NCBI GenBank assembly: GCA_042218075.1
Contig: JBDGRK010000005.1
Span: 36,716-100,715, forward strand
DNA length: 64,000 nucleotides
Direction of reading: 5' to 3'
Source of the DNA: Candidatus Nanohaloarchaea archaeon
Lineage (GTDB): Archaea; Nanohalarchaeota; Nanosalinia; Nanosalinales; Nanosalinaceae
In this document: piece after piece, positions 17,061-37,757 of the stretch
Layout of the letters: each line of letters opens with the position of its first letter
How positions within the stretch are numbered: the stretch's first letter is position 1
The notes under the pieces: generated by a model
Seen by the model: the letters and a program-made list of their open reading frames with translations, nothing else
Databases searched by the model: none
Told to the model about the DNA's origin: nothing
Position numbers and translations under genes: made by a program

Positions 17061-17181
17061 ATGAAAGGTGGACGTTTTTACACCGGAGCATTTTGAAAAT
17101 GACTTAAAACCTTCTAGCTTTAGCTCCAGCTTATTAAGTTCCCGCCCCGAATCTCTCTGCATGGTGGTTCTGAATGGATAG
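17061..17181 (+). promoter_or_regulatory. Putative Tyr-sensing frameshift leader of tyrS
   Basis: uORF 17061-17096 ATG AAA GGT GGA CGT TTT TAC ACC GGA GCA TTT TGA; +1 frame open to TAG 17179-17181, overlapping the tyrS ATG by 8 nt. Confidence 0.75.
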
Positions 17182-18196
17182 AGAGAACAGGAAAGAGTTT
17201 GTCCTCAGGAATACTGCAGAGTTTGTGAAGGAGGAGGAACTGGATGAGGTGCTGGATAAAGATGAACCCCGCGCCTACGTTGGATACGAGACTTCTGGGC
17301 CCGCCCACCTGGGACACTGGATCTCGGTGAGAAAGATGCTGGACCTTCAGAAGGCTGGCTTTCAGCCTGTTATACTCTGGGCGGATCTCCACACATACCT
17401 GAACAAGAAAGGGGAGGAGGAATGGATCGAGGATATGATGGAGTACTGGCAGGCCACCTTCGAGGCACTGGGACTTGAGGCAGAATACACTAAAGGAAGG
17501 AGTTTCGAGGAAAAAACAGAGTATTTCCACGACGTACTGGAGATGGCGAAAGAGACCACGATTAACAGGGGGACTCGATCAATGTCGGAAGTTGCAAGAG
17601 ACGATGAAAACCCTTACATCTCCCAGATAATTTACCCTCTGATGCAGTGCCTGGACATAGAATATCTCGACCTTGACCTGGCGGTCGCGGGCATCGACCA
17701 GAGAAAGATTCACATGCTGGCGAGAGAGAAACTCCCAAAGCTCGGCTACAGGAAGCCTACCTGCCTCCACTGGCCGATGCTGGCTTCACTTTCAGGAACG
17801 GGAGACAAGATGTCGTCCAGCAAGAAAGATACAATGTTCCCTCTGCACGCCGACCCCGATCACATTAGAGAAATTATAGAGGAAGGCTACTGTCCGCAGG
17901 GAGAGGTTGAGGACAATCCTATCATCGAGATAGCAAAGTACTTCATCTTCGGAGCTGATCGAGAGCTAAAGATAGAGAGAAAGGAGGAGTACGGTGGAGA
18001 CATTCACTACGAGGATTTCGAGGCTATGGCTGAAGACTTCGAATCCGGAGATCTACACCCTCTAGACCTGAAGGAAGCTGTAGCTGACGAAGTGGTGGAA
18101 AGGTTTGAGCCGGTGAGGCAGCGATTCAGAGAAGAGCCTGAGCTGCTTGATCCACTGGAAGAGATAGGTCACGAGAGACCCGGATATCTCCAGTGA
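17174..18196 (+). CDS. tyrS: Tyrosine--tRNA ligase (archaeal type)
   Basis: YVGYETSGPAHLGH (HIGH), IYPLMQCLD, GIDQRKIHMLARE, KMSSS. Confidence 0.97.
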   Translation: MDRENRKEFVLRNTAEFVKEEELDEVLDKDEPRAYVGYETSGPAHLGHWISVRKMLDLQKAGFQPVILWADLHTYLNKKGEEEWIEDMMEYWQATFEALGLEAEYTKGRSFEEKTEYFHDVLEMAKETTINRGTRSMSEVARDDENPYISQIIYPLMQCLDIEYLDLDLAVAGIDQRKIHMLAREKLPKLGYRKPTCLHWPMLASLSGTGDKMSSSKKDTMFPLHADPDHIREIIEEGYCPQGEVEDNPIIEIAKYFIFGADRELKIERKEEYGGDIHYEDFEAMAEDFESGDLHPLDLKEAVADEVVERFEPVRQRFREEPELLDPLEEIGHERPGYLQ

Positions 18197-18243
18197 TCAC
18201 CCATTATTTTTATTTCTTCCAGAGAAAGCTAGAACGATCCGCA

Positions 18244-18337
18244 ATGAAGGGTGGACGCTTTTCCGGTCGGAAGGTTTTCGAATGAACCAAAACCTGTTCT
18301 AGTTAAAGCTTTCTTCCAAAGTGGTTGGTATGCTTGA
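18244..18337 (+). promoter_or_regulatory. Putative Ser-sensing frameshift leader of serS
   Basis: uORF 18244-18285 ATG AAG GGT GGA CGC TTT TCC ... TGA; +1 frame open to TGA 18335-18337, overlapping the serS ATG by 8 nt. Confidence 0.75.
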
Positions 18338-19595
18338 TATAGATCTTTTCAGGCAGAATCCCGAGGAGATCAGAGAATCACAGAGAAAAAGAGGTGAAGA
18401 TCCTGAAAAAGTAGATGAAGTTGTCGAAGTGGATAGAGAATGGAGAGAGAAGCTCCAGGAGCTGGAATCTCTGCAGCAGGAGAGAAATACTGTTGGAGAT
18501 GAAATTGCTGAAGCAAAACAGAAAGGGAAAGACGCCTCTGAAAAGATCGAAAGGATGCAGCAGCTGAAACAAAAGATAGATGAACTGGAGGATGAGGTAA
18601 AGCAGCTTAAGGAAAGACGTGACAACTTGAGATACCAGATTGGAAACTTGCTGCATGAATCAGTTCCCGAAGGAGAAGGAGAGGAAGACAATCCTGAAGT
18701 CAGGAGCTGGGAGCCTGAAGGAGGAAGAAAGGAGGATTCGAAGCTGGCAGCCCACATTATGGAAGAGCAGAATTTGCTTTCCTCGGAGAAAGCGACTGAG
18801 GTGGGCGGAGAAAGAGCCTATTACCTATCACCAAAACTGATACAGCTTAGTCAGGCACTGATAAACTTCTCTATAGATTTCCTAGAGGAAAGAGGTTTCG
18901 GTGTATACCAGACTCCCTACATGCTGGAGGAAGAATCGATCTCAGCCGCAGTCGATCTTGAAACATTCGAAGAACAGCTTTACCAGGTGAATGAAAACGA
19001 TCGATACCTGATAGGGACCGCGGAGCACGCACTCGCCGCAAAGTACCAGAACGAAGTGATAGAAGAAGAACTTCCCCTCAAACTCGGAGGTTTCTCAACC
19101 AACTTCAGGAGGGAAGCCGGGAAGCACGGCCAGCAGACAAGAGGTCTATGGCGAGTACACCAGTTCGAGAAGGTGGAGCAGTTCGTGTTCTGCAAGCCAG
19201 AAAACCACCTTGATATTCTTGAAGAGACTCTATCCAATGCCGAGGATATAATGAAGCAGCTTGGTCTGCCGTACAGGGTGGTTGATATTTGTGACGGCGA
19301 TATTTCCAACAAGACTTTCAAACAGTACGATATAGAGGTCTGGAGGCCTCCACTTGGAGAGTACGGAGAAGTAGGAAGCTACGGTTCGTGCACAGGCTAC
19401 CAGTCCAGGGAATTTAACACACAGTTCAGAGAGGGAGGCAACAGAAAGACACCCTACACTGTATATGCCACTGGATTAGTACCTCAGAGGATTATTACAG
19501 CTATATTCGAGAACAATCAGGAAGAGGAAGGCATAAAGATTCCAGAACCTCTAAGAGATTACATGGGAGGCAAGGAGTACATCAGGCTGGAATAA
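18330..19595 (+). CDS. serS: Serine--tRNA ligase
   Basis: MLDIDLFR N-terminal coiled coil, LIGTAE, FRREAG...RGLWRVHQFEKVEQF. Confidence 0.97.
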   Translation: MLDIDLFRQNPEEIRESQRKRGEDPEKVDEVVEVDREWREKLQELESLQQERNTVGDEIAEAKQKGKDASEKIERMQQLKQKIDELEDEVKQLKERRDNLRYQIGNLLHESVPEGEGEEDNPEVRSWEPEGGRKEDSKLAAHIMEEQNLLSSEKATEVGGERAYYLSPKLIQLSQALINFSIDFLEERGFGVYQTPYMLEEESISAAVDLETFEEQLYQVNENDRYLIGTAEHALAAKYQNEVIEEELPLKLGGFSTNFRREAGKHGQQTRGLWRVHQFEKVEQFVFCKPENHLDILEETLSNAEDIMKQLGLPYRVVDICDGDISNKTFKQYDIEVWRPPLGEYGEVGSYGSCTGYQSREFNTQFREGGNRKTPYTVYATGLVPQRIITAIFENNQEEEGIKIPEPLRDYMGGKEYIRLE

Positions 19596-19649
19596 TCCAA
19601 AGATCTTTTGAGTGAGGAAGCAGAATTAACTAGCGAGGTGAACTCTTTG

Positions 19650-19859
19650 ATGGGTGTAATGGATGCTCTTTCAGAGCTGGTTGAGAGCGTAGTGGCTTTC
19701 GTAGTGATGATTCTGCTTGGAGTTGTCTCCTTCTTCGTGACAGTATTCGTCGTGGATGCAGGAGCAGCACTGGCAGGTTATTCTCCAAGCGCCGACTTTA
19801 CAGTGCTCTCGGCCTCTCTAATAGTGGTTGCGTCGATCCTCGCAGGATCGATGCGGTAA
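19650..19859 (+). CDS. Small two-TM membrane protein
   Basis: Two hydrophobic helices; start codon uncertain (19608, 19650 or 19659). Confidence 0.65.
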   Translation: MGVMDALSELVESVVAFVVMILLGVVSFFVTVFVVDAGAALAGYSPSADFTVLSASLIVVASILAGSMR

Positions 19860-19874
19860 ATTTCTCCTTTCTTT

Positions 19875-20789
19875 TTATCTTTCTACCCTGTGCCGCCAGT
19901 CAGAATACTTCTCTCCTTTTCCACTTACAACTTCCATGAACTCCGACTGTATTTCTTCCGTTACAGGACCTCTTCCATCAGAAATCTGCTTTCCATCTAT
20001 TTCTCTAATAGGAGTGACCTCTGCCGCAGTACCTGTAAAGAATGTCTCGTCCGACCTGATAAGCTGGTCACGCGTCATCCTCTTCTCCTTCACGGCGTAA
20101 CCCAGGTCTTCGGCTATCTGCCTGACTGAATCCATCGTAATTCCTTCTAGAACAGAGGAAGCGGGCGGTGTTAAAAGCTCTCCATTTCTTACAGCGAAAA
20201 GGTTCTCTCCTGAGCCCTCGGCTACGTATCCTTCGGGAGTAAGCATTATCGCCTCATCCATTCCATTTCTTATGGCCTCCTGCTTCGCCATCACCGAGTT
20301 AACATAGTTTCCGTTAGCTTTTGCCTTCGTCGGCATAACGTTTGGGTGATGCCGGTTCCATGAAGCAGTCTGGACCTCGACCCCGTTCTTCAGTGCTTCC
20401 TCTCCCAGGTAAGCTCCCCAGGGCCAGACCGCTATCGAAACCTTGACAGGATTATCATTCGGGTTCAGACCCATAGGTCCGTACCCCCTGAAGGCGACAG
20501 GCCTGACGTAACATGACTTGAGTTCATTTTCAAGTATTATCTTTTCCGTGGCATTTACCAGCTCCTGTTTGGAGTAGTCAAGATTCATTCCGGTTATCTT
20601 CGCAGAGTCGAGGAACCTCTCCATGTGGGAGTCAAGCCTGAAAACCGCGGGCACGCCATCGTTCTCATACGCCCTTATTCCCTCGAATACTCCTGTACCG
20701 TAGTGCAGGGCGTGAGTCAGAACGTGTACATTCGCGTTTTCCCATTCAACCATCTCGCCGTCCATCCAGATGTAGTCAACAGGCTCCAT
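19875..20789 (-). CDS. ilvE: Branched-chain amino acid aminotransferase
   Basis: HALHYGTGVFEGIRAY, AKANGNY, EGSGENLF, LEGIT, FFTGTAAEVTPI. Confidence 0.96.
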   Translation of the reverse strand: MEPVDYIWMDGEMVEWENANVHVLTHALHYGTGVFEGIRAYENDGVPAVFRLDSHMERFLDSAKITGMNLDYSKQELVNATEKIILENELKSCYVRPVAFRGYGPMGLNPNDNPVKVSIAVWPWGAYLGEEALKNGVEVQTASWNRHHPNVMPTKAKANGNYVNSVMAKQEAIRNGMDEAIMLTPEGYVAEGSGENLFAVRNGELLTPPASSVLEGITMDSVRQIAEDLGYAVKEKRMTRDQLIRSDETFFTGTAAEVTPIREIDGKQISDGRGPVTEEIQSEFMEVVSGKGEKYSDWRHRVER

Positions 20790-20867
20790 GTAAATTCTCC
20801 AGGCACTAAAATTCTTAATTTTAACCAGAGCCCTGAAATAGAAGAAGAGATTAGGATAGTAGAAAAC

Positions 20868-21254
20868 CTATTCCAGTTTACTACCAACAAGGCCTTCCTT
20901 CTCCTCTAAAAATTCGGCTTCGGCTCTCATTGCTCTCTCTGTCACATCTGAAGTTTGCTCATACTCTGATCCTCCATCAGTTTCCAACTGTGGCTTGTAG
21001 AAATCCTCTCCATCTCTGCGAACAGTACGAAGCTCGACATCTTCACCATGGTGTTCCCGTGCCTTTTCTTCACTCCGGTACAATCTAACTCCCGGAACTC
21101 CTCCATCAGGTATCAATCCCTCTTCCATTCTTCCATCTCTCTTGGCAACTTTATGTCTCCTTGGAAATGCGCCTCTACACATATCTCGGGAATCAGTATA
21201 ATTATCTCTAAATTGATTGGCCTGAATCTCCTCAGTAGGCATCGGCATCTCCAT
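20868..21254 (-). CDS. Orphan acidic protein with ETDGG motif
   Basis: 128 aa ORF; SD GAGGT lies inside the upstream mini-ORF. Confidence 0.65.
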   Translation of the reverse strand: MEMPMPTEEIQANQFRDNYTDSRDMCRGAFPRRHKVAKRDGRMEEGLIPDGGVPGVRLYRSEEKAREHHGEDVELRTVRRDGEDFYKPQLETDGGSEYEQTSDVTERAMRAEAEFLEEKEGLVGSKLE

Positions 21255-21256
21255 CT

Positions 21257-21328
21257 CTAACCTCTGTAGAGTTTTCCCCTGGATTTTGAAATTTTGCTGA
21301 ATGCTGTGTTATGGTAGTTTTTTTTCAT
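21257..21328 (-). CDS. Mini-ORF (23 aa) coupled to the downstream orphan gene
   Basis: SD AAGGTG; MKKNYHNTAFSKISKSRGKLYRG*; stop 2 nt before the next ATG. Confidence 0.55.
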   Translation of the reverse strand: MKKNYHNTAFSKISKSRGKLYRG

Positions 21329-21333
21329 GTTGA

Positions 21334-21504
21334 AACACCTTTGACGAATGAAGATGATCTAATGCGGCACGAGCACCGCAATCGAGAAACTCTGCCAGCC
21401 CACGGAAAGGTCATACCTTTCGGTATAGTCGGAAACCTTTTCCGTCAATAATTCAGCTGGCATGAACTCTCACAACCGAAAGTATAGAATCAATGATTTA
21501 TAAA
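21334..21504 (-). promoter_or_regulatory. Structured leader with uORF and anti-SD hairpin upstream of the orphan-ilvE unit
   Basis: TTTATAAA at 21497-21504; long stem TGCCAGC/GCTGGCA plus ACGGAAA/TTTCCGT capped by ATACC-GAAA-GGTAT; uORF 21359-21463 ending SIAVLVPH*; CATCTT pairs with SD AAGGTG. Confidence 0.6.
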
Positions 21505-21554
21505 CATTCTCTACCTCACGACTCTAAAAGTCTTAGGTTTCATCTTAACCTAGT

Positions 21555-25202: not shown

Positions 25203-25207
25203 ATACT

Positions 25208-26707
25208 TTAGATTTTTAGTTTTCTATTGAGCTTTTCAATCTGTTTCTGGCTGTAACTCTGGAACTTTGGTTCATATCTATAAAATGTCTTAAAGAACCG
25301 GATTACCGTCCAATTTCTCAAATAATATTTATACTTATCTCTAATCACAGTTGTGTCAAATAGTTTCTCCAATTTTGAGGCAGTATCACTATTTTTATTC
25401 TGGATTCTTAGCTCATCTTTGCTAGATATCAAGTTAGATGCTATATTATCTATATTTTGGGATACCTTGACAGGCAATTTTACACCTGAATTAGAATTTC
25501 CTCTCAATCCTACTTTGAACTCCACTTCTTCTTTATTCAATTTCTCCAAAAAAGTTTCTCTAGATTCAAATATTGAATCTAACTTCTCTACAGAAGCAAA
25601 ATCGATTTCATTCTCCCAAGCATAAACCTGATTTTTTGATATACCTAATTCAGATCCTAATTCCTTCTGGTATAGATTATTCCTTTCTCTATAATCTCTA
25701 ATCTCATCACCCAATCCTAGGACCCTTAAATCGCTGATTTTTCCAAGATCAAAGTATGGTAAGTAAAAATTATGATTTCTTCTTCCCCTATAACACAGAG
25801 TCCTGGATCCATTTTTCAGCTTTGAAAAAATATGCTTTTTCTTCCTAGGATGTGCAGATCCAATCTTTTCGCAAAAGTATTCGAAATAATTACCTGAAAT
25901 CCTAATCCTGCCAACACCGTTCCTTTCTCTTCTATTTTTAGTCTCAATTCCCATATACTGAAGATCAGAAACACATTGATCGATAAAATGATCAGTTGCG
26001 GATGTTATTGTTACACGGTTACTTTGAGAAGAAACCGCACCATCTGCATCAAATAAACCCCTCCAATAAGCACCCAGCAATTCTTCATCTTCACTAAAAA
26101 GACTTGGCCGCCTTAATTTTCCTTTTTTATAAGATTCTGGCAACTTGAAAAAATATCTGAGGAACCTACAGAACCATTTATTTGAAACAGTCAGTTGAAT
26201 TTTATTTCCTCTATCTAGAATAGTTATAGATTTTTGAGGTATACCAAATAGTCTTTGAATCTTCATTGACATATCCTCGATAAAATCTCTGGAATGTGAG
26301 ATTTCCGAATCATTCTTTCCTCCGTCCACTAAAGTCCATCTAGATGAGTCAGAGAATCCGCCATCACCAGCAGCCAGACCAGCGAAATAAGCATATTCAT
26401 CTGATCTTAATTCAGAAATAAATCTAGGAGGATCAAATCTTGATTTATCTCCATATCCTGTGATGTAATCTATAGCTTCAGCTAGTTCTTTTGAACTATA
26501 TCTTGTTAAAAAGATTTCCAAAGGCCATAAGTTTCGCTCTTCGCAATTCCTAATTAAATAACCTTCATAATTTTCCAGATCAGTAGAATCAAAATTAAAT
26601 CTAGAGTTAAGCTTAGCGTATGGCTTCTCTCTAAAAGTTTTATCCAAATCTCTAGAGACCGATTCAACTATTTTAAGCTCTCCAGACTCGTAAAATAGCT
26701 CTTCCAT
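25208..26707 (-). CDS. Free-standing LAGLIDADG homing-endonuclease-like protein with XRE-type HTH
   Basis: FAGLAAGDG and WRGLFDADG motifs; LYQKELGSELGISKNQVYAWEN HTH; AT-rich; no intein termini. Confidence 0.85.
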   Translation of the reverse strand: MEELFYESGELKIVESVSRDLDKTFREKPYAKLNSRFNFDSTDLENYEGYLIRNCEERNLWPLEIFLTRYSSKELAEAIDYITGYGDKSRFDPPRFISELRSDEYAYFAGLAAGDGGFSDSSRWTLVDGGKNDSEISHSRDFIEDMSMKIQRLFGIPQKSITILDRGNKIQLTVSNKWFCRFLRYFFKLPESYKKGKLRRPSLFSEDEELLGAYWRGLFDADGAVSSQSNRVTITSATDHFIDQCVSDLQYMGIETKNRRERNGVGRIRISGNYFEYFCEKIGSAHPRKKKHIFSKLKNGSRTLCYRGRRNHNFYLPYFDLGKISDLRVLGLGDEIRDYRERNNLYQKELGSELGISKNQVYAWENEIDFASVEKLDSIFESRETFLEKLNKEEVEFKVGLRGNSNSGVKLPVKVSQNIDNIASNLISSKDELRIQNKNSDTASKLEKLFDTTVIRDKYKYYLRNWTVIRFFKTFYRYEPKFQSYSQKQIEKLNRKLKI

Positions 26708-26821
26708 AATATTTCTAACTTTGAAATATTAAAATACCTGATCCAAAATCTTCCGCTATTCCGGGAGAAAAGAAATAAGGGAAAAATAAAAGAGAGCTAT
26801 CATATTGTACAAGAAGGTTAA

Positions 26822-27196
26822 TCACAGCGAGGATTCAGAGAATTCACCACCTCTCTCAAACATTCTGGCCTGGCTTTCACCCCCATCGACAGAAGAGTTG
26901 TGCCGAACATCCCTCATTTTTTCTTCGTATTCCTGTTCTTGCTCTTCCACTTCTCCTCCATCGGTTGCAACAGGTTTCAGGAAGTCTTTAGTCTGTCTCC
27001 AGTTGGGTAGAGATCTCATTCTCTGCATCATTAATTCATTTCCAACCTCAGCAGACATAACTCCCTCATAGTCGCTATCTGTTTCAGGAGTTACTCTGTA
27101 CTTGCTTCTTCTAGTCTCCTCTACATGGTAACCGTTTCTATCAAACTCTCTCGCCTCTTCTTCAGTGAGATCAAGGTAAACAGAGTTTCCAGCCAT
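26822..27196 (-). CDS. Orphan acidic protein with ATDGG motif
   Basis: Start MAGNSV at 27196 shares TGATG with the upstream mini-ORF. Confidence 0.65.
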   Translation of the reverse strand: MAGNSVYLDLTEEEAREFDRNGYHVEETRRSKYRVTPETDSDYEGVMSAEVGNELMMQRMRSLPNWRQTKDFLKPVATDGGEVEEQEQEYEEKMRDVRHNSSVDGGESQARMFERGGEFSESSL

Positions 27197-27279
27197 CAAG
27201 ATCTCCCCCAAGAGCTGTTTCTATTCTCGTACTGGTTTTTGACGTTTGCGTCGTGGTTGTGGTGTGTTGTGTTTGTCAT
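27196..27279 (-). CDS. Mini-ORF (27 aa) coupled to the downstream orphan gene
   Basis: SD AGGTGA; MTNTTHHNHDANVKNQYENRNSSWGRS*; TGATG overlap. Confidence 0.6.
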   Translation of the reverse strand: MTNTTHHNHDANVKNQYENRNSSWGRS

Positions 27280-27284
27280 GGTTG

Positions 27285-27555
27285 TCACCTACAGCAAGAA
27301 GCTGTTCCCGACCTGCCAGGCCAAGAAACAGCGAGAAAACTCTACACAATAAGCAGCAGCACAATCAGGATAATCGAAACTGCACTGAATTCAGATACTT
27401 TCGAAAACAAACCAGAATCCATATTTGAGAAACTAACCGAGCAGAACATGTCCACCCTGGATAAAGCATCCACCCTGCACAAAATATTCACCCGTGGGGG
27501 CCGTGGACAGTGCTTTATGGAACATAGTCGTTAAGTCTCCTCTATTCTTTATAAA
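27285..27555 (-). promoter_or_regulatory. Putative Val/Ile/Leu-sensing triple-site frameshift leader
   Basis: TTTATAAA 22 nt before ATG 27525; uORF 27433-27525 with GGT GAA TAT TTT GTG / GGT GGA TGC TTT ATC / GGT GGA CAT GTT CTG; +1 frame ends IILIVLLLIV* at 27342; hairpin follows. Confidence 0.75.
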
Positions 27556-27563
27556 ACTCAGGT

Positions 27564-29512: not shown

Positions 29513-30282
29513 CTTTCACTCACCTCGTAGCTCCCTAAAGTCTTCACATCAGCGTAGGTCTCAAGGCATTTCCTTGCTTTTCTGAAATCTGGCGATTCCC
29601 GGCCTGTCTCCGCCTCCACGTAGAAGTAGTAGTTCCCGAGACCGTCCTTAGTGGGCCTCGACTGGATGTATGCAAGATTTATACCGTGGCCGGAAAAACA
29701 GGAGAGTATCGACTCGAGTAGTCCTGGCCGGTCAACCCCAGGATCAAGTATCAGTGAAGTCTTATCTCGCTCTCTCGACTCACCGTTCAGAACCAGGAAC
29801 CTCGTAGTATTGTTTCCCTCATCCTGGAGGTTCTCCTCGATAATATCAAGATTGTTGACCTCGGCGGCTTTCCTCGAGCAGATCGCAGCCTCACCATCCT
29901 CTATCTCCTTTGCGGCTCTGGCAGTTGAGGAGGATTCCCTGGTCTCAAAACTTCTTTCCCTCAGAAAATTGCTGCACTGGGAAAGTGCCTGAGGGTGGGA
30001 AACCACTGCCTCGACATCCTCCATTCTATCATTTGAGGCAAGCACATGGTTCACCTCCAGCCTGACCTCTCCCGTTACGCTGACATCTTTCTGCCTCAGT
30101 AGATCCACTGACTCCCCTACTCCTCCGCCGAGAGAGTTCTCGAAAGGTATGACTGCGGCTTCAGCATCGGTCTCAACCGCCTCTCTGTTAGATGAGCATG
30201 GAACCTCTTCGTAGTCTTCAAAATATCTATCCGCAGCCATGTGTGTGTAGGTCCCTTCGGGACCGAGAAAAGCTACTCTCAT
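29509..30282 (-). CDS. pheA: Prephenate dehydratase
   Basis: AFLGPEGTYT, PFENS, SHPQALSQC, NTTRFLV, ACT domain IQSRP. Confidence 0.95.
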   Translation of the reverse strand: MRVAFLGPEGTYTHMAADRYFEDYEEVPCSSNREAVETDAEAAVIPFENSLGGGVGESVDLLRQKDVSVTGEVRLEVNHVLASNDRMEDVEAVVSHPQALSQCSNFLRERSFETRESSSTARAAKEIEDGEAAICSRKAAEVNNLDIIEENLQDEGNNTTRFLVLNGESRERDKTSLILDPGVDRPGLLESILSCFSGHGINLAYIQSRPTKDGLGNYYFYVEAETGRESPDFRKARKCLETYADVKTLGSYEVSES

Positions 30283-30539
30283 TGCCTCTCCCTGTCCAGA
30301 GCCATCTGTATCAGCTTTTCAGCAAACTCTCTTCCTCTCTCCGGCGGGAGATTTCTTTCATCGAAAATGGAGGCAAACTGCTGTTTCACAGCTTCCTCCC
30401 TGCCTTCATCCTTCATCTCCATACCGTTTTTTCTCTTGTACTCCCCTATCTTATCCACAACTTCCATCCTTTCCGCGATTGAATCGGCTATCTCCTGGTT
30501 GATGCGGTCGATCTCCTCTCTGTAGTCTTCAAGACTCAC
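30279..30539 (-). CDS. Chorismate mutase (AroQ type)
   Basis: LEDYREEIDRINQEIADSIAERMEVVDKIGEYK...DEGRE; first gene of the overlapping operon. Confidence 0.9.
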   Translation of the reverse strand: MSLEDYREEIDRINQEIADSIAERMEVVDKIGEYKRKNGMEMKDEGREEAVKQQFASIFDERNLPPERGREFAEKLIQMALDRERQ

Positions 30540-30626
30540 AGCAAAACTCTTCCTCTCCAGTTTTTAAACCTCTTGTTCCGGGGTGAATACTTTTAATCCT
30601 GCTCTATCCAAGTATTCCCGTATTCT

Positions 30627-31391
30627 ATGAGAGTGGAAAAGCTGGGATCGGGAGAGCCGGAATACGCAGTGGTGGCGTGTCTTCACGGCGACGAGCCGTG
30701 TGGAAGGAAAGCAATAGAGAGATTTCTCGCATCTAACCGGGAAGTGGAAAAAGCTGTCAAGCTGATAGTCGCGAACGAAAAAGCGCTGGAGCAAGATAAG
30801 AGATACATCGATGTGGACCTGAACAGGTGCTTTCCCGGCGATCCGGAGAGCTCTAGGCACGAGGAGAAGCTGGCTGCTGATCTAACAGATGAAGTAGAAG
30901 GAATGACGGTTCTGGACCTTCACTCCACTAGATCCTACAGCGGTGTCTTGGTGGCGAATTCCAAGGTGAATGAGGAAAGGATTAAGCTTGCGAAAGCTGC
31001 GGGAGTGGAAAAGATCGCACACCTTGCATTAGAAGATGTCGACTGCATGGAGGAAAGAGTTAAAACAGTCTCAGTGGAGTGCGGACTCCAGAAGTCGGAA
31101 AAAGCCGGGGAAAATGCGCTTGAAGTAATAAAGAACTTCCTTGGATATTTTGGTGTAATAAATCACGATTATCATGTTTCAGAACCTGAAGTATTCAGGA
31201 CATTTGAAACTGTAAGAAAAGGTGATTACACCTTCACGGCAGAGAACTTCAGGAAGGTGGAGCAAGGAGAAGTCTACGCAAAAAAAGGAGAGAAAGAACT
31301 GGAAGCTGAAGAGCCATTTTACCCTGTTTTGATGTCAACAGACGGCTACGAGGAGATACTCGGCCACAAGGCCAGAAAGATGGATATGTAA
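30627..31391 (+). CDS. Succinylglutamate desuccinylase/aspartoacylase (M14-like) family protein
   Basis: LHGDEPCG, RYIDVDLNRCFPG, LDLHST, VECG. Confidence 0.88.
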   Translation: MRVEKLGSGEPEYAVVACLHGDEPCGRKAIERFLASNREVEKAVKLIVANEKALEQDKRYIDVDLNRCFPGDPESSRHEEKLAADLTDEVEGMTVLDLHSTRSYSGVLVANSKVNEERIKLAKAAGVEKIAHLALEDVDCMEERVKTVSVECGLQKSEKAGENALEVIKNFLGYFGVINHDYHVSEPEVFRTFETVRKGDYTFTAENFRKVEQGEVYAKKGEKELEAEEPFYPVLMSTDGYEEILGHKARKMDM

Positions 31392-31406
31392 GAAACACTG
31401 CCCGCT

Positions 31407-33341
31407 TTAATCCTGTCTTGACTGCTTGGCCCTCTCAGTCTCCATCCTCTGTTCCTTTTCAGAGGTGAGTCTCTTGGCTATCAGGTAGTAGGCCTCTCTC
31501 AGCTTCTTCAGGTCCTCGATCTCGCAGTACTCGTCTTTCCTGTGCACCATCTCCTGGTTCAGACCTATCTCCACGTAGGGAGTACCCTTCTCAGCAAAGT
31601 ATCTGCCGTCGGAAGTTCCCCCTTCCGTAATGTGTTCAGGTTCTCGACCCAGGACTTTCTGGAGTTCTTCAGTAGCTATCTTCCTGAACCTCTGGTCCGT
31701 GAGCTGGTATGCTCCGCCGTGATCAACTTTCGACTCCACCACGACATCAACTTCCAGATCTTCAAGCTCTTCCTCAATCCTCTGCCTGATCTCAAGGGTC
31801 TTTTGCTCGGGCGTGTACCTGATATCCATACCTATGTGGACTTCAGCTGGCAGGCTATTGTAAGTATCATCGCTGGATATTAGTGTCGGAGCAAGCGTTG
31901 GATCAGGAAGCTTCTTGTTTTCCACCTCCAGTTCCATTTCATTTAGGCGTTCCAGAGCCTTCGGAAGCGCCTTCAGCACATTTTTCTCCGCGTCCTCGAC
32001 TCTGGATGCGTGGACTGTATCTCCCTGGAGGTAGACATCAAGCCAGAATGCTCCTCTTGTTCCTGTCTGGATATCTAGATCGGTTGGCTCACCGTTAATC
32101 ACGTAATCGAAGCCATCCCCATCCCTGTAGTAGCTCTCCACCAGTGCCTTAGTGCCGTTTTCACCTCCTATCTCTTCATCGCCAGATATCATCAACACGG
32201 CTCTACCGTCAAAGTTTGGATCTCTCCTGAGGTCGACGAATGCCTTCATCATGGCCGCCACCTCGGCCTTCATATCCGTTGCTCCACGGCCGTAAAGCTT
32301 TCCATCCAGAACTGTGGGATCAAACGGATCAGTTACCTCCCAACCCACTCCAGGTTCAACAACATCGAGGTGACCGTTGAAGCAGACGGAAGTGCACCCG
32401 TTTCCTATCTCGGCCGTGAGGCTCTTTACACCCTGGATGTCGTGTATATCTGATTTTATCCCGTTTTCCTGCAGGTAACGCTCCATAGTTCTGAAGATTT
32501 CGGGATCCTTCACCGGGGAGACTGTCTCCTGGCCTATCAGCTCTTTCGCAACATCCACAATATCTCTATCATCGGTTTCAAGCTCTTCCTCTCTGACTCT
32601 GCGCCCCTTGTAGCCTATCTTGTGGGAGTAGCCCTTGGTTGACATCACTATTGGATAGAAATCTTCTTCCGCCCTGAGTTCTTCTCCCTCTTTCCTGGCG
32701 AAGACCTCTCCCTCTTCAACTTTCTCGAAGTTCCTTGCTGTGAACTCGTAACCCGATCCCTTTTCCTCTCCGAATATGCTGAAAATATCCGGGTCGCTGA
32801 CCCTGTAGTCCGCGTCTATAACACCTTCAGCAGCGAGGAAGTTCACCATGATATCATATGCGTTCTCCGCGGCTTCCTCTGAACCCGGCTTGCCGCATTC
32901 CACTGAGATACCTCTCATGTAGTTCATCATGGTCTCCGGCATCCAGGAAAGATCCACCGCTGTATCCAGTCCGGAGTTCTTGACCAGATCTAGATCCCTC
33001 GGATCTATGAAGAAACCGAAAGGCGTGGGCTCTGACTCTGTGGAGTGGAAGTCAAGAACTTTAAGACCCTCTACTTCCTCAAGCAGTTCCGCAGCTAGCC
33101 TCTCCTCGTGTACATCGCTTTCAGGGTCTCCCGGGAAGCATCTGTTCAGGTCTTTCTCGATGTACCTTTCCCCCTCTTCCCTTGCCTCTTCATTCGCCAG
33201 AATAAACTTTACCGCTTTCTTCAGCTCGTGTTCCGACCGCTTCAGCTTCCTCATCGCCTTCAATCCGCAGTCCTCCACGCCGTGAACACATGCTATAAGC
33301 GCGTACTCCGGCTTACCCTCACCGAGAATTTCCACCTTCAT
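31407..33341 (-). CDS. Fusion of AstE/AspA-like deacylase and M20 (DapE/ArgE-like) metallopeptidase
   Basis: N-terminal VHGVEDCG/DLNRCFPG/DFHST; C-terminal FNGHLDVV, GRGATDMK, DEEIGG, GEPT, GGTSDGR. Confidence 0.88.
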   Translation of the reverse strand: MKVEILGEGKPEYALIACVHGVEDCGLKAMRKLKRSEHELKKAVKFILANEEAREEGERYIEKDLNRCFPGDPESDVHEERLAAELLEEVEGLKVLDFHSTESEPTPFGFFIDPRDLDLVKNSGLDTAVDLSWMPETMMNYMRGISVECGKPGSEEAAENAYDIMVNFLAAEGVIDADYRVSDPDIFSIFGEEKGSGYEFTARNFEKVEEGEVFARKEGEELRAEEDFYPIVMSTKGYSHKIGYKGRRVREEELETDDRDIVDVAKELIGQETVSPVKDPEIFRTMERYLQENGIKSDIHDIQGVKSLTAEIGNGCTSVCFNGHLDVVEPGVGWEVTDPFDPTVLDGKLYGRGATDMKAEVAAMMKAFVDLRRDPNFDGRAVLMISGDEEIGGENGTKALVESYYRDGDGFDYVINGEPTDLDIQTGTRGAFWLDVYLQGDTVHASRVEDAEKNVLKALPKALERLNEMELEVENKKLPDPTLAPTLISSDDTYNSLPAEVHIGMDIRYTPEQKTLEIRQRIEEELEDLEVDVVVESKVDHGGAYQLTDQRFRKIATEELQKVLGREPEHITEGGTSDGRYFAEKGTPYVEIGLNQEMVHRKDEYCEIEDLKKLREAYYLIAKRLTSEKEQRMETERAKQSRQD

Positions 33342-35176
33342 CAGACTCTCGCACCCTGATTCTCGCCGTATTCAGTTGCCGGCATAAGCCCAAGGACATC
33401 CTCCAGATGCGCCTCAAGATCTCCAGCGTATGATGGAGCCATCGCCCCTGCTGTATCCATAACATCTGAATCGTACACATCCCTGTAAATATCCATCCAT
33501 TTTTCCTCTTCGTCAAGTCCAGGGAGGGTCTCAGGATCTGAAGGATCTAAACCTTCTACCTCTTTCTCGAAAGCCTGCCTGATCTTTTCACCGTGAGGCA
33601 TAACTGCTGCCTTTGCAAGAGCAACCTGGTACTCGTCATCGTAGTTCTGTCTCGAGACTCTGTACTCGAATCCTCCTGTAGCTGGCTTGGGCCTTACATC
33701 GTGGTGGATGCCCGCCATATGGGCGATTGAGACGTTTCGCTTGTGGTATTCGTCTTTTCTCTCTTCGTCCATTCCCTTGAGGTCAACCTTTCCTCTGACT
33801 CTCTCAAGTTCCGGTTCCTGATCTGAACCGGAATTAACCACCTTTGTGAATTCAATATCGCCGTCTTCAATATATTCCGCCGGTGTCTTGGCATCATCTG
33901 GACTGAGAGCGAGGAGTGTTACATCTTCCAGCTCTAACTCCTCATCTCCGTAAAACTCGACATATTCCTCGTCAGGAGGCAGGACCCAGACCATGTGATG
34001 CTCTGTCATGTAGTGATCCATCATGTTCTCGAACTCTCCCATTTCTCTCTCCTCATCCAGTAGCTTTTCAATGAGAGTCCAGGGTGTTCCGACCCTGTCT
34101 TGCTTGTCTTCTCCTTCAATCTCTGAAATCACGTGCTGTGCGTAAGTGTCATGCTCCCAGTATACCTGGTTGACTGCGGTCCTGGAGGTTTCTCCCTCGT
34201 ATTCAACCTTTGTGTTCGAACTTACCGTTTCAAGACCTCTCTCGAACAGCATCCTGTAAACAATCTCGTCTGAGATTCTCTGGTCCAGATCAAGGTTGCC
34301 GTTCTCATCCGCAAAAAGTCCTGAAGTCAACTGTGTCGAGCCGCCGAACATGTTAAGAGCGACCTTCGGCCCGAATATCGTGGCCATGTAGTCGAAGTAG
34401 TACGGAACATCGGTGAAATGATCAAAGTACTGGTTCAGGAATGCAAGAGCCTCATCCCTCTCCCATTCCTCCAATTTACCTCTTTTAATTACATCTCTTC
34501 CATCTGTCTCATCCGGAACTTCTTCAGGATCTGTGAACTGCGGCGTCAGTCCTTCTTCAGCGTATTCCAGGGCAGGGAACTCTCTTTCAAGGTAATTCTT
34601 CGTGCCCTCCTTGAAGCTTTCAAGTATAGCCAGCAGAAGACCGAACTCTCCATCTTCAGTGACTCTCACTGCTCCGGAATCTATCTCCTGCTGGGCCCCA
34701 AGATCGAAGTCAATTTCGGGCGTGGAAACCGCTATATCCTGGTCCGAGTCCTCAGTTAAGTCAAGTTTTAGAGCCGCAGGTTTCTGCCCGCCATGACCTT
34801 TCTCAACTACTTTATCCAGTTCAAACTCAAATTCCTCTCCGTATTCATCGGTTCTCTCTCTTAACTCCGAGTCTATCTCGCTCCAGAGCTCCTCGTTCAG
34901 AATCTGCTGATAAACAGGTGAAAGAGGCATCACTCCCTCCTCATTTAAAATCGGATTCTCGCTCTCAATACCGATTCCGACTCCTTCCGAGGAAGAGGCA
35001 TCGACATTCGAATTTTCCTCATAGTTCTCTTCCCAGTCCTCAACAGCACTTTCTCTAAAATCATCGTAAGAAAGGGTTTCCTCTACCTGATCATCTTCTT
35101 CAAGCATCTCTTCCACTGTTTCATTCTCCGAATCTCGGCTTTGAGATTCCGAAACATTTGCTTGTGAAACTGACAT
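33341..35176 (-). CDS. Divergent glutamate-cysteine ligase (GCS2/YbdK-like) carboxylate-amine ligase
   Basis: GIGIESE, GSTQLT and HHDVRPKPATGGFEYRV match the order of GCS2 motifs; SD AAGGTGA before ATG 35176; TGATG overlap with the peptidase fusion. Confidence 0.6.
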   Translation of the reverse strand: MSVSQANVSESQSRDSENETVEEMLEEDDQVEETLSYDDFRESAVEDWEENYEENSNVDASSSEGVGIGIESENPILNEEGVMPLSPVYQQILNEELWSEIDSELRERTDEYGEEFEFELDKVVEKGHGGQKPAALKLDLTEDSDQDIAVSTPEIDFDLGAQQEIDSGAVRVTEDGEFGLLLAILESFKEGTKNYLEREFPALEYAEEGLTPQFTDPEEVPDETDGRDVIKRGKLEEWERDEALAFLNQYFDHFTDVPYYFDYMATIFGPKVALNMFGGSTQLTSGLFADENGNLDLDQRISDEIVYRMLFERGLETVSSNTKVEYEGETSRTAVNQVYWEHDTYAQHVISEIEGEDKQDRVGTPWTLIEKLLDEEREMGEFENMMDHYMTEHHMVWVLPPDEEYVEFYGDEELELEDVTLLALSPDDAKTPAEYIEDGDIEFTKVVNSGSDQEPELERVRGKVDLKGMDEERKDEYHKRNVSIAHMAGIHHDVRPKPATGGFEYRVSRQNYDDEYQVALAKAAVMPHGEKIRQAFEKEVEGLDPSDPETLPGLDEEEKWMDIYRDVYDSDVMDTAGAMAPSYAGDLEAHLEDVLGLMPATEYGENQGARV

Positions 35177-35181
35177 TGTAT

Positions 35182-35390
35182 CACCTTTCAATTAGGAAGT
35201 GCAGAAAGAGCGAATTCTTTTCATGGAGGCCCGCCCTTTCAACACTCCGGGTCGATGGGCCCCCTTCAAACGACTAAAATAATCAGCAGGATAGCGATAC
35301 CGCTGACCAGATTCACTGATCCCGGTTCAAAGTTTTCGGCCAGCGTTTCTAACATATTTGATGCATCCACAGCAAACATTTAAATAAGGT
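35182..35390 (-). promoter_or_regulatory. Branched-chain-amino-acid leader peptide (no frameshift site) with downstream hairpins
   Basis: TTTAAA about 23 nt before ATG 35355; uORF 35266-35355 MLETLAENFEPGSVNLVSGIAILLIILVV*; GC-rich stem GGGGCCC/GGGCCTC; TCGCTCTTTC can pair with SD GAAAGGTGA. Confidence 0.65.
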
Positions 35391-35424
35391 TTGACAGTAT
35401 TTTATGATCCCGAAATAGTAATAG

Positions 35425-36471
35425 CTATCCGGACCCTGTCTCCTCAAGATACTCCTTTCCCTCAGTGCAGTTTTCTCCAAATTTTTCCAGGTCAGTGTTT
35501 GCGCCACAGAGAGGCACCGCGACCTTTCTTCCCTCCAGATTCATGCCTAAATCTCTGCTGAAAAGCACAGCTGACGCAGCAACTGCTCCCGCAGGTTCAG
35601 TAACGACCTTCTGTCTCTCCGCCAGCATAGCTACAGTCGCCTTCACCTGTTCATCGGAAACATAGACCACTTCGTCGACAAGTTCCCTCATGTGCCCGGC
35701 GGGAAGATCTCCTACCCTTCTCGTAGCTATACCTTTCGCAACTGTGTCGACTGAATCTCTCTCGTACACCTTCTCCCGGTTGATAGTCTGCTTCGCGGAA
35801 CCGCACCCCTCTGTCTGTACACCGACAACTCTTGAATCAGGATTCAGGTGCTTTACTGCCGTAGCGACTCCACTTATTAGACCGCCGCCGCCGATGGCCA
35901 CAAAAACAGTGTTGAGTTCCGGGAACTGTTCCACCATCTCTTTTCCCAGTGTTCCCTGCCCTGCTATAACACCCGGATCATTGTATGGATGGACGAAGGT
36001 TAATCCCTGCTCCTTTTCCAGCTTTCTCGCATATTTCTTCGACTCCTCGAACTCCTCTCCATGGAGAACCACATCAGCACCGTAGCCGGAAGTAGCCTCA
36101 ACCTTCGCATCCGGGGTGTTCTCCGGCATCACTATCGTGGCTTCAACACCAAGCTCTCTGGCGGCGAGAGCAACTCCCTGCGCGTGGTTTCCTGAAGAAG
36201 CTGCGATCACTCCCCTCTCCTTATCTTCCCCGGAGAGCCGGGAAATCTTGTTGTAAGCTCCTCTAAGCTTGAAGGCCCCGGTCCTCTGGAAGTTTTCCAT
36301 CTTGAAACCTACTTTATCAGCTCCGGATTTCTCGGCGAAGGTTCTGGAGAAATCCATCGGAGTTTTCTTCGCGATTCCCTCAAGCCTTTCAGCTGCTCCT
36401 TTTACAGAGCTGTAGCTCACCAGTTCTTCGGATTTTGAAGTTTTCAGCGTTGCGTGGTCGTGTTTTGTCAT
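35425..36471 (-). CDS. ilvA: Threonine ammonia-lyase (short form, no regulatory domain)
   Basis: KMENFQRTGAFKLRGA, ASSGNHAQG, IGGGGL, EPAGA; SD GAGGTG before ATG 36471. Confidence 0.93.
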   Translation of the reverse strand: MTKHDHATLKTSKSEELVSYSSVKGAAERLEGIAKKTPMDFSRTFAEKSGADKVGFKMENFQRTGAFKLRGAYNKISRLSGEDKERGVIAASSGNHAQGVALAARELGVEATIVMPENTPDAKVEATSGYGADVVLHGEEFEESKKYARKLEKEQGLTFVHPYNDPGVIAGQGTLGKEMVEQFPELNTVFVAIGGGGLISGVATAVKHLNPDSRVVGVQTEGCGSAKQTINREKVYERDSVDTVAKGIATRRVGDLPAGHMRELVDEVVYVSDEQVKATVAMLAERQKVVTEPAGAVAASAVLFSRDLGMNLEGRKVAVPLCGANTDLEKFGENCTEGKEYLEETGSG

Positions 36472-36474
36472 TTT

Positions 36475-36647
36475 GCGAAGCACCTCTTGGAGAATAATCT
36501 AAGAGAAAGCTCGATTTCTACCCAATAATACCGATAATCGAAATGATGGAAATAGATCCAGAAACTTCAGAAAAATCAGATAGAGTTGGGACTCCCGAAA
36601 CTTTACTCAGATTCAGTAGACCGAAGGATAAAGCGTCCACCCTTCAT
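36475..36647 (-). promoter_or_regulatory. Putative Ile-sensing frameshift leader of ilvA
   Basis: uORF 36603-36647 ATG AAG GGT GGA CGC TTT ATC ... TAA; +1 frame ends ISIISIIGIIG* at 36518; CTCTT/AAGAG hairpin over the SD. Confidence 0.8.
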
Positions 36648-36701
36648 TGACGAACTCACAGAATTATAAAGAGAAATAAGAATTTAAAAAGGGAAGGGAG
36701 A

Positions 36702-37469
36702 TTACATTCCCATAGTTCCCTGAGAATCGACCTCATCTGTTTCCGGAGTTCGGTCTCGAACATAGCTATCTATAGATGTTCCCGGCATGTAGCCTCTTGA
36801 TTTAATGTACTCCTCTCTGGCTTCAACTATAACTTCATCCGGTATCTCAACATCTCTTCGAGCTTCTGGAGCCCCATCATACCTGTTAGCGGTTACAGCA
36901 TAGCGAGTATCTCCTTCGAGAAGCTGGGTTATCTGCCACTCATGAACCGGATTGATATTGCTCCCAGTGACTTCCTCAAGAAAGTTCTCATCATCTATAT
37001 CCGTCTCCTGCGCCAAGACCCTTATCATCTCCAAATCGTCCACACCAAGATATTCCTCCTCTTCAGGCACTCTATCTCCATAGATCAGAGAATCCGGCAT
37101 CTCATCTTTATAGATGAAATCTCCTTCTCCCGGATCCCACCATCTCTGATCTCTCGGATCCTGTCTGAACTCTACAGTCTCAGCACCACGATTATCAGTG
37201 CCGCTCTGAGTTTGAGTTATCACACCTCCATCGGTTCTTGCTTCATAACCCTCTTCTTCAAACATGAATTCTGAGGCGGTTTCCATATCGCTTTTCTCTT
37301 CCATGATAGAATCGTGGGGATGTTCTGTACTTGTACCGGGATCCCGGCTTTTAGCTTCATTCGGATTTGTGGGCGGAGATTCATCATGAAGAATTTCATG
37401 AACCCTGATGCCTTCTCTGAGTCTTTCATCCAATTCTTCCCTATTCTTGTACTGAGACTTACCCATCAT
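36702..37469 (-). CDS. Orphan acidic protein with RTDGG motif
   Basis: 255 aa ORF, SD GGAGGTGA, ATGATG overlap with the mini-ORF stop. Confidence 0.7.
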   Translation of the reverse strand: MMGKSQYKNREELDERLREGIRVHEILHDESPPTNPNEAKSRDPGTSTEHPHDSIMEEKSDMETASEFMFEEEGYEARTDGGVITQTQSGTDNRGAETVEFRQDPRDQRWWDPGEGDFIYKDEMPDSLIYGDRVPEEEEYLGVDDLEMIRVLAQETDIDDENFLEEVTGSNINPVHEWQITQLLEGDTRYAVTANRYDGAPEARRDVEIPDEVIVEAREEYIKSRGYMPGTSIDSYVRDRTPETDEVDSQGTMGM

Positions 37470-37546
37470 CTCTCACCTCCTTCTACAGCTGTTTCCACGG
37501 ATTTTGAGTCGCGTTGCGTATGTTGGGTTTGGTTGTAGTTTGTCAT
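37466..37546 (-). CDS. Mini-ORF (26 aa) coupled to the downstream orphan gene
   Basis: SD GAGGTGA; MTNYNQTQHTQRDSKSVETAVEGGER*. Confidence 0.6.
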   Translation of the reverse strand: MTNYNQTQHTQRDSKSVETAVEGGER

Positions 37547-37548
37547 AG

Positions 37549-37757
37549 AGTGTTCACCTCGAAATTGAGAAACGAGAAATGAACACTGCGCTTTTTACAG
37601 CAGCAGTGCCAGCAGAATCAAAAGTAGCAGTGAAAGTCCAAGATCAATTGAATCGGAAATCGAGAAAATAGCTGGAGCTCGTTTATCGCAATTCCAGAAC
37701 GCGTCCACCTATAGTTAATGGCTCCATACTATTTCCCGTTTAATCAGTCTTTATAAA
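37549..37757 (-). promoter_or_regulatory. Putative Leu-sensing frameshift leader with anti-SD hairpin
   Basis: TTTATAAA 22 nt before ATG 37727; uORF 37683-37727 with GGT GGA CGC GTT CTG; +1 frame ends LGLSLLLLILLALLL* at 37595; AGTGTTCA..CTCG/CGAGGTGAACACT stem at 37549-37587. Confidence 0.8.

Follow-up and report, generated by a model that had tools for sequence, protein, structure and literature searches.

What do five short upstream open reading frames (uORFs) do in front of tyrS, serS, an ilvA-like gene and two genes of no recognisable family in a nanohaloarchaeal genome? They lie in a stretch of 64,000 nt from contig JBDGRK010000005.1 of Candidatus Nanohaloarchaea archaeon (assembly GCA_042218075.1, positions 36,716 to 100,715 of the forward strand), referred to below as the window. 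A preliminary description of this DNA had proposed that they are the leaders of an amino-acid-sensing system, in which shortage of charged tRNA for one codon, X, pauses the ribosome, pushes it into the +1 frame and so switches on the downstream gene. The coordinates and the content of the five uORFs and of their seven in-frame motif copies agreed with the sequence (Table 1). The motif GGTGRAYRYKTT matched 8 times in the window against a mean of 0.15 in dinucleotide-preserving shuffles (n = 100), none of which got to 8, and 7 of the 8 copies were in frame within the five uORFs. The codons that follow these seven copies are TAC (uORF at 17061+), TCC (18244+), GTG, ATC and CTG (27525-), ATC (36647-) and CTG (37727-). 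The genes that had been named behind TAC, TCC and ATC, namely tyrS, serS and ilvA, were borne out by Pfam and TIGR models and by clustering. Frame 0 indeed closed soon after X, with a stop 3-15 codons on in all five leaders, and the +1 frame ended at the start regions of tyrS and serS or, in the three leaders of other genes, in runs of Ile, Leu and Val residues (...SISIISIIGIIG, ...LSLLLLILLALLL and ...SIILIVLLLIV). The +1-frame open reading frame (ORF) at 18263..18337 contains no ATG, GTG or TTG downstream of the motif. The observation of motif-bearing leaders is confirmed, and it is far larger than first noted.

Table 1. Leaders, +1-frame ORFs and target genes in the window. Peptides are given up to their stop codons; sensor codon stands for the codon X proposed to be sensed.
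Feature	Coordinates	Strand	Details
uORF-Tyr, MKGGRFYTGAF	17061..17096	+	motif 17067-17078; sensor codon TAC 17079-17081
+1-frame ORF of tyrS leader, would be entered after TTT	17080..17181	+	33 codons, then TAG 17179-17181 overlapping tyrS start region (ATG 17174)
tyrS, tyrosine--tRNA ligase, class Ib	17174..18196	+	Pfam PF00579 (class I Tyr/Trp-type); N-terminus in TyrRS cluster
uORF-Ser, MKGGRFSGRKVFE	18244..18285	+	motif 18250-18261; sensor codon TCC 18262-18264
+1-frame ORF of serS leader	18263..18337	+	24 codons, then TGA 18335-18337 overlapping serS (ATG 18330)
serS, serine--tRNA ligase	18330..19595	+	groups with SerRS; TIGR00414 on cluster representative
AAAACC and A/T-rich element within serS leader	18289..18316	+	counterpart in tyrS leader 17106-17140
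uORF with three in-frame sensor units, MFHKALSTAPTGEYFVQGGCFIQGGHVLLG	27433..27525	-	motif 27492-27481 with GTG, 27474-27463 with ATC, 27456-27445 with CTG
+1-frame ORF common to the three sites of the 27525- uORF	27342..27479	-	ends in ...AVSIILIVLLLIV
Small ORF2, MTNTTHHNHDANVKNQYENRNSSWGRS	27196..27279	-	TGA overlaps ATG of next ORF; read from sequence
Target ORF, 124 aa, no recognisable family	26822..27196	-	Pfam and NCBIfam searched
uORF-Ile, MKGGRFILRSTESE	36603..36647	-	motif 36641-36630; sensor codon ATC 36629-36627
+1-frame ORF of Ile leader	36518..36628	-	ends in ...GSISIISIIGIIG, 7 Ile in last 12 residues; no own start codon after motif
ilvA-like threonine ammonia-lyase	35425..36471	-	pyridoxal-phosphate enzyme PF00291; cluster representative reaches ilvA cut-off TIGR01127
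uORF-Leu, MEPLTIGGRVLELR	37683..37727	-	motif 37709-37698; sensor codon CTG 37697-37695
+1-frame ORF of Leu leader	37595..37696	-	ends in ...LGLSLLLLILLALLL
Small ORF2, MTNYNQTQHTQRDSKSVETAVEGGER	37466..37546	-	TGA overlaps ATGATG start of next ORF; read from sequence
Target ORF, 255 aa, no recognisable family	36702..37469	-	Pfam and NCBIfam searched

The covariation of codon and gene that three cases in the window had suggested was found across genomes. The DNA around the motif matches in relatives held 155 distinct strict sites, 137 of them in short ATG-started uORFs, and the amino acids specified by X at these 137 sites were Trp, Leu, Ser, Val, Gly, Thr, Ile, Tyr, His, Cys, Phe and Pro. In the own genome and its relatives together, X was cognate to the downstream enzyme in 47 of 47 leaders whose first downstream ORF within 400 nt is an aminoacyl-tRNA synthetase. 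Ten amino acids were represented (Ser 14, Gly 8, Tyr 7, Thr 6, Val 6, Phe 2, and Cys, His, Leu and Trp 1 each). A cognate Pro codon was present at 12 of 12 proS loci, and one lysS leader (L266, genome G046; MIGGCFK..., X = AAG) has a +1 ORF that closes in ATGA on a class II LysRS. In total 13 amino acids were seen as X, with no specific search made for Ala, Arg, Gln and Met. A pattern with X = RAN for Asp, Glu, Asn and Lys sensors gave 57 matches in 70 genomes against 10 for the reversed control; of the 13 matches inspected most were ordinary Shine-Dalgarno (SD) sites or lay inside genes, and L266 alone was clear. To escape ascertainment by the motif, serS, thrS, glyRS and proS loci of the family were gathered by protein homology. 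A uORF with an SD-like hexamer, two codons and the cognate codon was found at 22 of 26 usable serS loci, 21 of 29 thrS loci, 26 of 27 glyRS loci and all 12 proS loci. The relaxed uORF search at these loci required the cognate codon; the strict-motif matches did not, and all of them were cognate. We consider it almost certain that these leaders make up an amino-acid-specific system.

The reading frames behind the site point in the same direction. For 69 homology-found leaders it was determined whether the first stop after the site falls within -30 to +12 nt of the gene start. This was the case for the +1 frame in 68 leaders, for the +2 frame in 20 and for frame 0 in none, so the +1 frame is conserved as open, as had been supposed. 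Lack of covariation and a +1 frame that does not stay open had been named beforehand as grounds for giving up the proposal; neither applied. In the set of 47 synthetase leaders the +1 stop lay -16 to +19 nt from the called start in 46; the outlier L078 at +41 and some of the other offsets are, as judged by eye, miscalled start codons. Stop and gene start overlapped exactly, in the manner of ATGA, in 13 of the 47, and many +1 ORFs of this set have no ATG, GTG or TTG after the motif. At 15 sites the +1 frame continued into the target ORF and stayed open there beyond 100 codons. Most of these fusion sites have no +1-frame ATG between the preceding stop and the motif, and the fused targets include a protein of 228-262 aa of no family, an M20 ArgE/DapE-type deacylase and others. 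At proS the sites form a staircase: in 11 of 12 loci the +1 stop of site A is the 0-frame stop of site B, and the +1 ORF of site B closes as NTGA overlapping the proS start, also in 11 of 12. A parallel arrangement is seen in the 27525- uORF, where the Val, Ile and Leu sites stand in one frame and all feed one +1 ORF. A relay arrangement characterizes the Ile, Leu and Val leaders, whose +1 ORFs end in runs of exactly those residues; after them come either an SD sequence and the gene, or a small ORF2 that overlaps the target start with its stop codon.

The motif itself is matched to the ribosome of this organism. The 3' end of its 16S rRNA reads ...GGATCACCTCC, and RGGUGR is complementary to UCACCU. 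The base before GGTG was a purine at 134 of 137 sites, including 22 of 25 with codons other than Lys, and the position after GGTG was G or A, which changes the residue between Gly and Glu and keeps the pairing with U (GGTGAA variants made up 12 of the 137). Three thrS leaders have the hexamer CGTGGT, in which GUGG is kept in place; according to pairing by hand, a U on the 3' side, which faces the next base of the rRNA, makes up for the pair lost on the 5' side. The residues encoded at the motif vary (G/E/D, then R/C/Y/H/D, then F/V/P/A), whereas GGT was used in 64 of 66 homology-found leaders with a GGN first codon, against 22% of Gly codons genome-wide. Since the residues vary and the codons are fixed, conservation is at the nucleotide level, in agreement with the earlier proposal.

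The codon before X, which would occupy the P site, depended on the first base of X. Among the 137 sites TTT preceded T in 52 cases, A in 23, G in 25 and C in 2, whereas GTT preceded C in 25 cases and A or G in none. In the proS set GTT, ATT, GTC or CTT stood before CCN and TTT never did; the homology-found sets add CCC-T, CCC-A and CCT-A, and GTT-T is used as well. With every combination but GCG-T, a P-site tRNA that moves forward by one base would retain two pairs or more, and the sole combination that would improve the pairing (UUU to UUC) is avoided. From the work on hungry codons and prfB as reviewed in PMC5009743, we infer that such a rule would be expected for regulated P-site slippage.

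The composition of the target proteins adds a further regularity. Targets other than synthetases contained the amino acid specified by X at a median of 0.39 times its share in the proteome, and 45 of 48 were below 1; the other sensed amino acids averaged 1.00 times in the same proteins. In the synthetases the depletion was weaker (median 0.83). The Trp-controlled proteins are mostly without any Trp, the ilvA-like protein has 2.6% Ile against 6.2% in the proteome, and the 255-aa target has 3.9% Leu against 8.4%. A depletion of the sensed residue fits genes that are needed when that amino acid is short.

A TATA-like A/T peak was found at -35 to -28 relative to the start codon of the uORF, an ATG that is itself preceded by a conserved cA. 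The position of this peak implies that the uORF transcript is nearly leaderless. From the motif, the codon-gene covariation, the frames, the rRNA complementarity, the P-codon rule and the target depletion, all read directly from the DNA, we infer that ribosomes shift frame at these sites, that the shift would rise on starvation, and that an output step of one kind or another would follow. The leaders are thus probably prfB-like, hungry-codon +1 frameshift sensors of the supply of charged tRNA, acting in cis and at the level of translation. The nearly leaderless transcript would open with the short uORF, typically AUG-AAR-GGU-GRA-YRY-KUU-X. Once KUU (or CCC, CCU or NUU) occupies the P site and X the A site, the RGGUGR lying upstream could pair with the 3' tail of 16S rRNA. 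If aminoacyl-tRNA for X is plentiful, decoding would continue in frame 0 to the stop a few codons on. If it is scarce, the A site would stay empty, the P-site tRNA would re-pair one base downstream and translation would proceed in the +1 frame.

Four outputs could follow from such a shift. The +1 frame may end on or beside the synthetase start, often in ATGA, as at tyrS and serS, which would lead to termination-reinitiation or protect the transcript. It may be the frame of the target protein itself, as in prfB or antizyme; it may feed a second sensor, as in the staircase; or it may enter a string of codons for the same amino acid ahead of a coupled small ORF and the target, as in the Ile, Leu and Val/Ile/Leu leaders. 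Candidates for the output step are termination-reinitiation at the overlapping stop and start, as in haloarchaeal gene pairs (PMC6728339, PMC10666635), relief of termination on untranslated leader RNA (FttA; PMC13681488) and, after the model of the ermC leader (PMC5009743), a start region that becomes open, each as excerpts of these sources describe it.

Several observations weigh against this reading. Openness of the +1 frame taken alone is weak evidence for short leaders, since the +2 frame is also open in thrS: 13 of the 20 leaders open in +2 are short thrS leaders, out of 21 thrS leaders. Leaders are missing in some close relatives (serS 4 of 26, thrS 8 of 29, glyS 1 of 27). GCG, which is unable to re-pair in +1, is the P codon in two serS leaders of one genus, and in L099, which combines GGC with GCG, the +1 ORF stops 33 nt short; this leader may be decaying. 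The spacing of the SD-like element, which the preliminary description had called tight, gave no clear support. From GGTG to the P codon it is 5 nt. In this genome SD and ATG are normally 5-10 nt apart, with a peak at 7, so that the value is at the lower limit and not clearly outside. The spacing is mostly 7 at the synthetase starts behind these leaders, and an SD-like GGTG or AGTG often lies about 7 nt upstream of the target start. A strained SD helix in the style of prfB is not demonstrated by a spacing inside the normal range; a shift to 6 would relax one that is slightly short. A general stimulatory hairpin after X was not found either, the mean minimum free energy at the 137 sites being -5.1 as compared to -4.7 for shuffled sequences and -5.0 for a control segment. 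Finally, an AAAACC and A/T-rich (TTCTAGNTAAA-like) element stands 40-50 nt before the synthetase start in 32 of the 47 leaders and is kept in two genomes (G002 and G004) where the uORF is gone. This element may be an internal or second promoter for a leaderless synthetase mRNA, which its geometry fits, or an RNA element. The leader may then only modulate, adding inducible expression to a basal level, and the claim that only shifted ribosomes switch on the gene is not supported as it was written.

Could the same frames be used without any frameshift? In that case two overlapping ORFs would be present, the +1 ORF would start at the GTG within the motif (G-GTG-RAY) and be coupled to the gene, and ribosomes stalled at X in the uORF would modulate that start, for example by covering it. 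The motif GTG shares the frame of the +1 ORF at every GGTG site, and it is present in all but two leaders, a further point against the proposed shift. A GTG-started ORF in the Ile, Leu and Val leaders would also resemble a classical leader peptide with a C-terminal regulatory run, and three of the fusion cases (L085, L070 and L090) have upstream ATGs in the +1 frame. However, the thrS leader L223 has GGC for GGT and hence no GTG; its +1 ORF is intact, lacks a start codon of any kind, begins right after a TGA and closes in ATGA at thrS. Where the leader opens with ATGAAR, 7 nt separate the GTG from the start codon of the uORF, the transcript would be nearly leaderless, and no SD sequence comes before the GTG. 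A ribosome stalled at X would moreover cover the GTG and lower the output on starvation, the opposite of what synthetases and X-depleted targets would require, and the dependence of the P codon on the first base of X finds no account. We regard this explanation as unlikely.

Slightly less probable still is attenuation by stalling only, in which the pause at X in frame 0 would remodel or shield the leader RNA and the open +1 frame would be incidental. Bacterial leader peptides work by attenuation of the stalling type, which counts in its favour. The GlyRS leaders have a hairpin directly after GGA with changes on both sides of the stem (by eye), and in the Leu leader single-sequence folds predict only local hairpins, around the SD sequence of ORF2; both would suit such a mechanism. 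Incidental openness is, however, hard to square with the bias of the 69 leaders towards the +1 frame, with the exact ATGA overlaps, with fused targets that have no other route of translation and with the proS staircases, where the sensor sites connect frames 2, 0 and 1. Nor was a conserved structure present across the leader classes: RNAalifold, run on MAFFT alignments of the leaders for Thr, Ser and Gly, predicted no fold that they convincingly have in common, and no terminator/antiterminator pair was found in the leader alignments, the free-energy comparison or the single-sequence folds.

A tRNA-binding riboswitch of the T-box kind, with X as a specifier read off the ribosome by uncharged tRNA, is very improbable: its logic agrees with the match of a single codon to the synthetase behind it (47 of 47 cases), and UGGA in GGUGGA resembles the T-box UGGN that pairs with the NCCA end of tRNA, but an Rfam scan of the window gave no family at gathering score, X is always in frame with the nearby ATG of a short ORF, the GGTGAA variants would break the CCA pairing and no conserved scaffold structure was found. 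Transcriptional slippage was set aside by reasoning on the T runs, which are 5 or shorter and absent at GTT-C sites.

With prfB-like frameshifting as the favoured reading, the question is how far the leaders extend. In the whole draft genome (1.10 Mb) 20 strict motif matches were found. Those beyond the window precede, according to gene identities taken from NCBIfam, glyRS (GGA), pheS (TTC), thrS (ACC), valS (GTT), proS (CCA) and a Trp-controlled operon with two TGG sites. The rest of the strict matches in this genome have no uORF and seem to be fortuitous or normal SD sites. One more leader, for His (C40:23767), came from a broadened scan, which yielded nothing new in the window, and a fuzzy scan of the genome with up to 2 substitutions added nothing credible. 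The motif extended by AAR was present in 34 of 41 relatives searched and in 60 of 70 genomes of the phylum, against 0-2 per genome for the reversed-pattern control; by family the counts were 48 of 49 (f1), 5 of 10 (f3), 6 of 8 (f4), 0 of 1 (f2) and 0 of 1 (f5). An 18-letter version, scanned over one genome per prokaryotic species, gave 69 stretches. Of these, 33 were in records titled Nanohaloarchaea, Nanohalarchaeota, Nanosalina, Nanohalobium or Asbonarchaeaceae, 8 were in 'uncultured archaeon' records and 28 were scattered over bacteria, mostly one per genome. By rough arithmetic the bacterial matches are at or below chance.

We lean towards seeing here a phylum-wide, codon-programmable regulon, in which a portable cassette of about 15 nt, RGGUGR-A-YRY-NUU, would produce a shortage-driven +1 shift before any sense codon. 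If so, the three sensors in one frame at 27525- would amount to OR logic and the two-step proS staircases to AND or ultrasensitive logic, while the fused proteins would be made directly.

The system shares parts with several known ones. As in bacterial prfB, a shift-prone P codon (NUU) within a short ORF1 stands a few bases after an SD-like element and is followed by a slow A-site codon, and the output is in the +1 frame; the leaders with fused targets have the ORF1/ORF2 layout of prfB. The E-site codon of prfB is UAU, i.e., YRY as in these leaders. Unlike in prfB, the A-site codon is a sense codon that varies by gene (13 amino acids) instead of UGA, and what would be sensed is aminoacyl-tRNA and not release factor. 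RGGUGR would pair with UCACCU at 4 nt from the P codon and is not clearly strained, and most outputs would consist in the coupling of a separate gene. Both synthetases and other proteins are encoded by the genes concerned, there is no homology to prfB, and the regulon belongs to an archaeal phylum. Bacterial attenuators (trpL, ilvL, hisL, pheM) likewise have a short ORF with codons of the amino acid that the downstream gene makes or charges, and the Ile/Leu/Val codon runs of the three relay leaders in the window recall them. In contrast to these attenuators, the synthetase leaders have a single sensor codon, the runs lie in a +1 frame without a start of its own, and the host is an archaeon. 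T-boxes, too, have one specifier codon per gene that matches a synthetase or amino-acid gene, for many amino acids. The leaders differ from them by the lack of a T-box RNA match in the window (Rfam), by a codon that lies within a uORF and would be read by the ribosome, and by their occurrence, in the genomes scanned, in those of Nanohaloarchaeota type only. Because prfB, T-boxes and classical attenuators each fail at least one defining feature, the leaders were not placed in those families.

Slippage in the P site while a starved or rare sense codon waits in the A site is also the basis of Ty1 and Ty3, of other hungry-codon +1 shifts and of ermC. Those are, however, set-ratio or drug-triggered, and none is a family of interchangeable amino-acid sensors. 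In the ermC leader ketolides induce frameshifting, and the shifted ribosomes travel on and open the downstream start (PMC5009743). This 2016 review of recoding covers sensor-effector frameshifting (RF2, antizyme), hungry codons and frameshifting in leader ORFs; its excerpts describe nothing like the present leaders. The overlap or abutment of the +1 stop with the target start is shared with haloarchaeal termination-reinitiation pairs, for which excerpts of two studies document ATGA/TGATG coupling in Haloferax volcanii (PMC6728339, PMC10666635); unlike in those pairs, the upstream ORF, as proposed here, would be reachable only after a change of frame. Excerpts of a 2021 review give a single programmed frameshift reported in Archaea, a -1 event in Saccharolobus (PMC8211752). 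Full-text literature searches, with supplements outside their scope, found no published description of the leader system. The components are known, but not, as far as these searches show, their employment throughout a regulon, and in an archaeon, as a sensor that can be exchanged from one amino acid to another.

Bacteria sense amino acids with T-boxes and leader-peptide attenuators. We know of no archaeal equivalent of either, and how archaea sense amino acids for the control of synthetases is, to our knowledge, largely unknown. If the proposal is right, the leaders would be an archaeal functional counterpart of the T-box and the first regulatory +1 frameshift in Archaea, and in no domain would frameshifting at sense codons have been seen before as a general sensor of amino acids. 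A compact, transferable sensor with specificity from a single codon would be attractive for synthetic biology, and the leaders would offer a natural experiment on ribosome slipping, with regard to SD pairing, the rules for E- and P-site codons and the empty A site. The regulon would further point to unknown proteins that are switched on when Trp, Leu, Ile, Val or His is short, in host-dependent symbionts poor in amino acids. Cultured nanohaloarchaeon-host pairs exist, which makes the prediction directly testable.

Some observations concern individual leaders and their surroundings. At the eighth motif match in the window (30582-30593, +) the next codon is TAA and an in-frame ATG is lacking; the distance to a 254-aa ORF downstream (30627-31391) is 45 nt. 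This match is no part of the leader system and probably arose by chance or belongs to a normal 5' region. The target ORFs at 26822-27196 and 36702-37469, which have no family in Pfam or NCBIfam, gave no usable match in the Atlas and low-confidence models. Both small ORF2s (27196-27279 and 37466-37546, -) and the N-terminus of the ilvA-like protein (36471, -) begin with MTN or MTK, are rich in Thr, Asn, Gln and His and have hardly any Ile or Leu. A 499-aa ORF (25208-26707, -) with LAGLIDADG_3 and HTH_3 domains lies downstream of the 124-aa ORF that follows the Val/Ile/Leu leader. The number of tRNAs found by ARAGORN in the draft genome, 9 only, was too small for use.

At the start of contig C7 of the same genome (C7:10) there is a possible Lys site, the +1 ORF of which closes in GTGA on a 159-aa ORF; the contig begins only after the start of the uORF. 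In L032 (genome G020), where the leader has CTA, the LeuRS that follows scores best with the bacterial-type model TIGR00396 and not with the archaeal one. The staircase proS is likewise of the bacterial type (TIGR00409) and was found in 12 of 50 genomes of the family with the query used; the staircase is present in L268-L277, in L279 and in the own genome (C40:12942-12548, -), where the first unit has a CTT P codon. Two matches of the 18-letter pattern, L153 and L173, fall in one metagenome-assembled genome titled Colwellia polaris, and two per genome is unusual for chance.

In several serS leaders AAAAC is able to pair with an upstream GUUUU. The hairpin of the GlyRS leaders (L226-L254) was noted by eye and unscored, in the Gly class only, and both of its arms vary between genomes (CUGCC/GGCAG, CCGCG/CGCGG, CCGUC/GACGG and CCGG/CCGG). 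Finally, the Trp operons (C10:50939-50400, -, in the own genome; L039, L047, L066, L070, L080, L085 and L090) have a common layout. The +1 ORF of the first uORF encodes a conserved ISS[IV]KN[FI]SW, and a second uORF comes after it, preceded by its own TATA-like element and then a conserved TTACGTGAT box. In the +1 frame this second uORF continues into a protein that lacks Trp and has no family, and behind which an M20 deacylase often stands.

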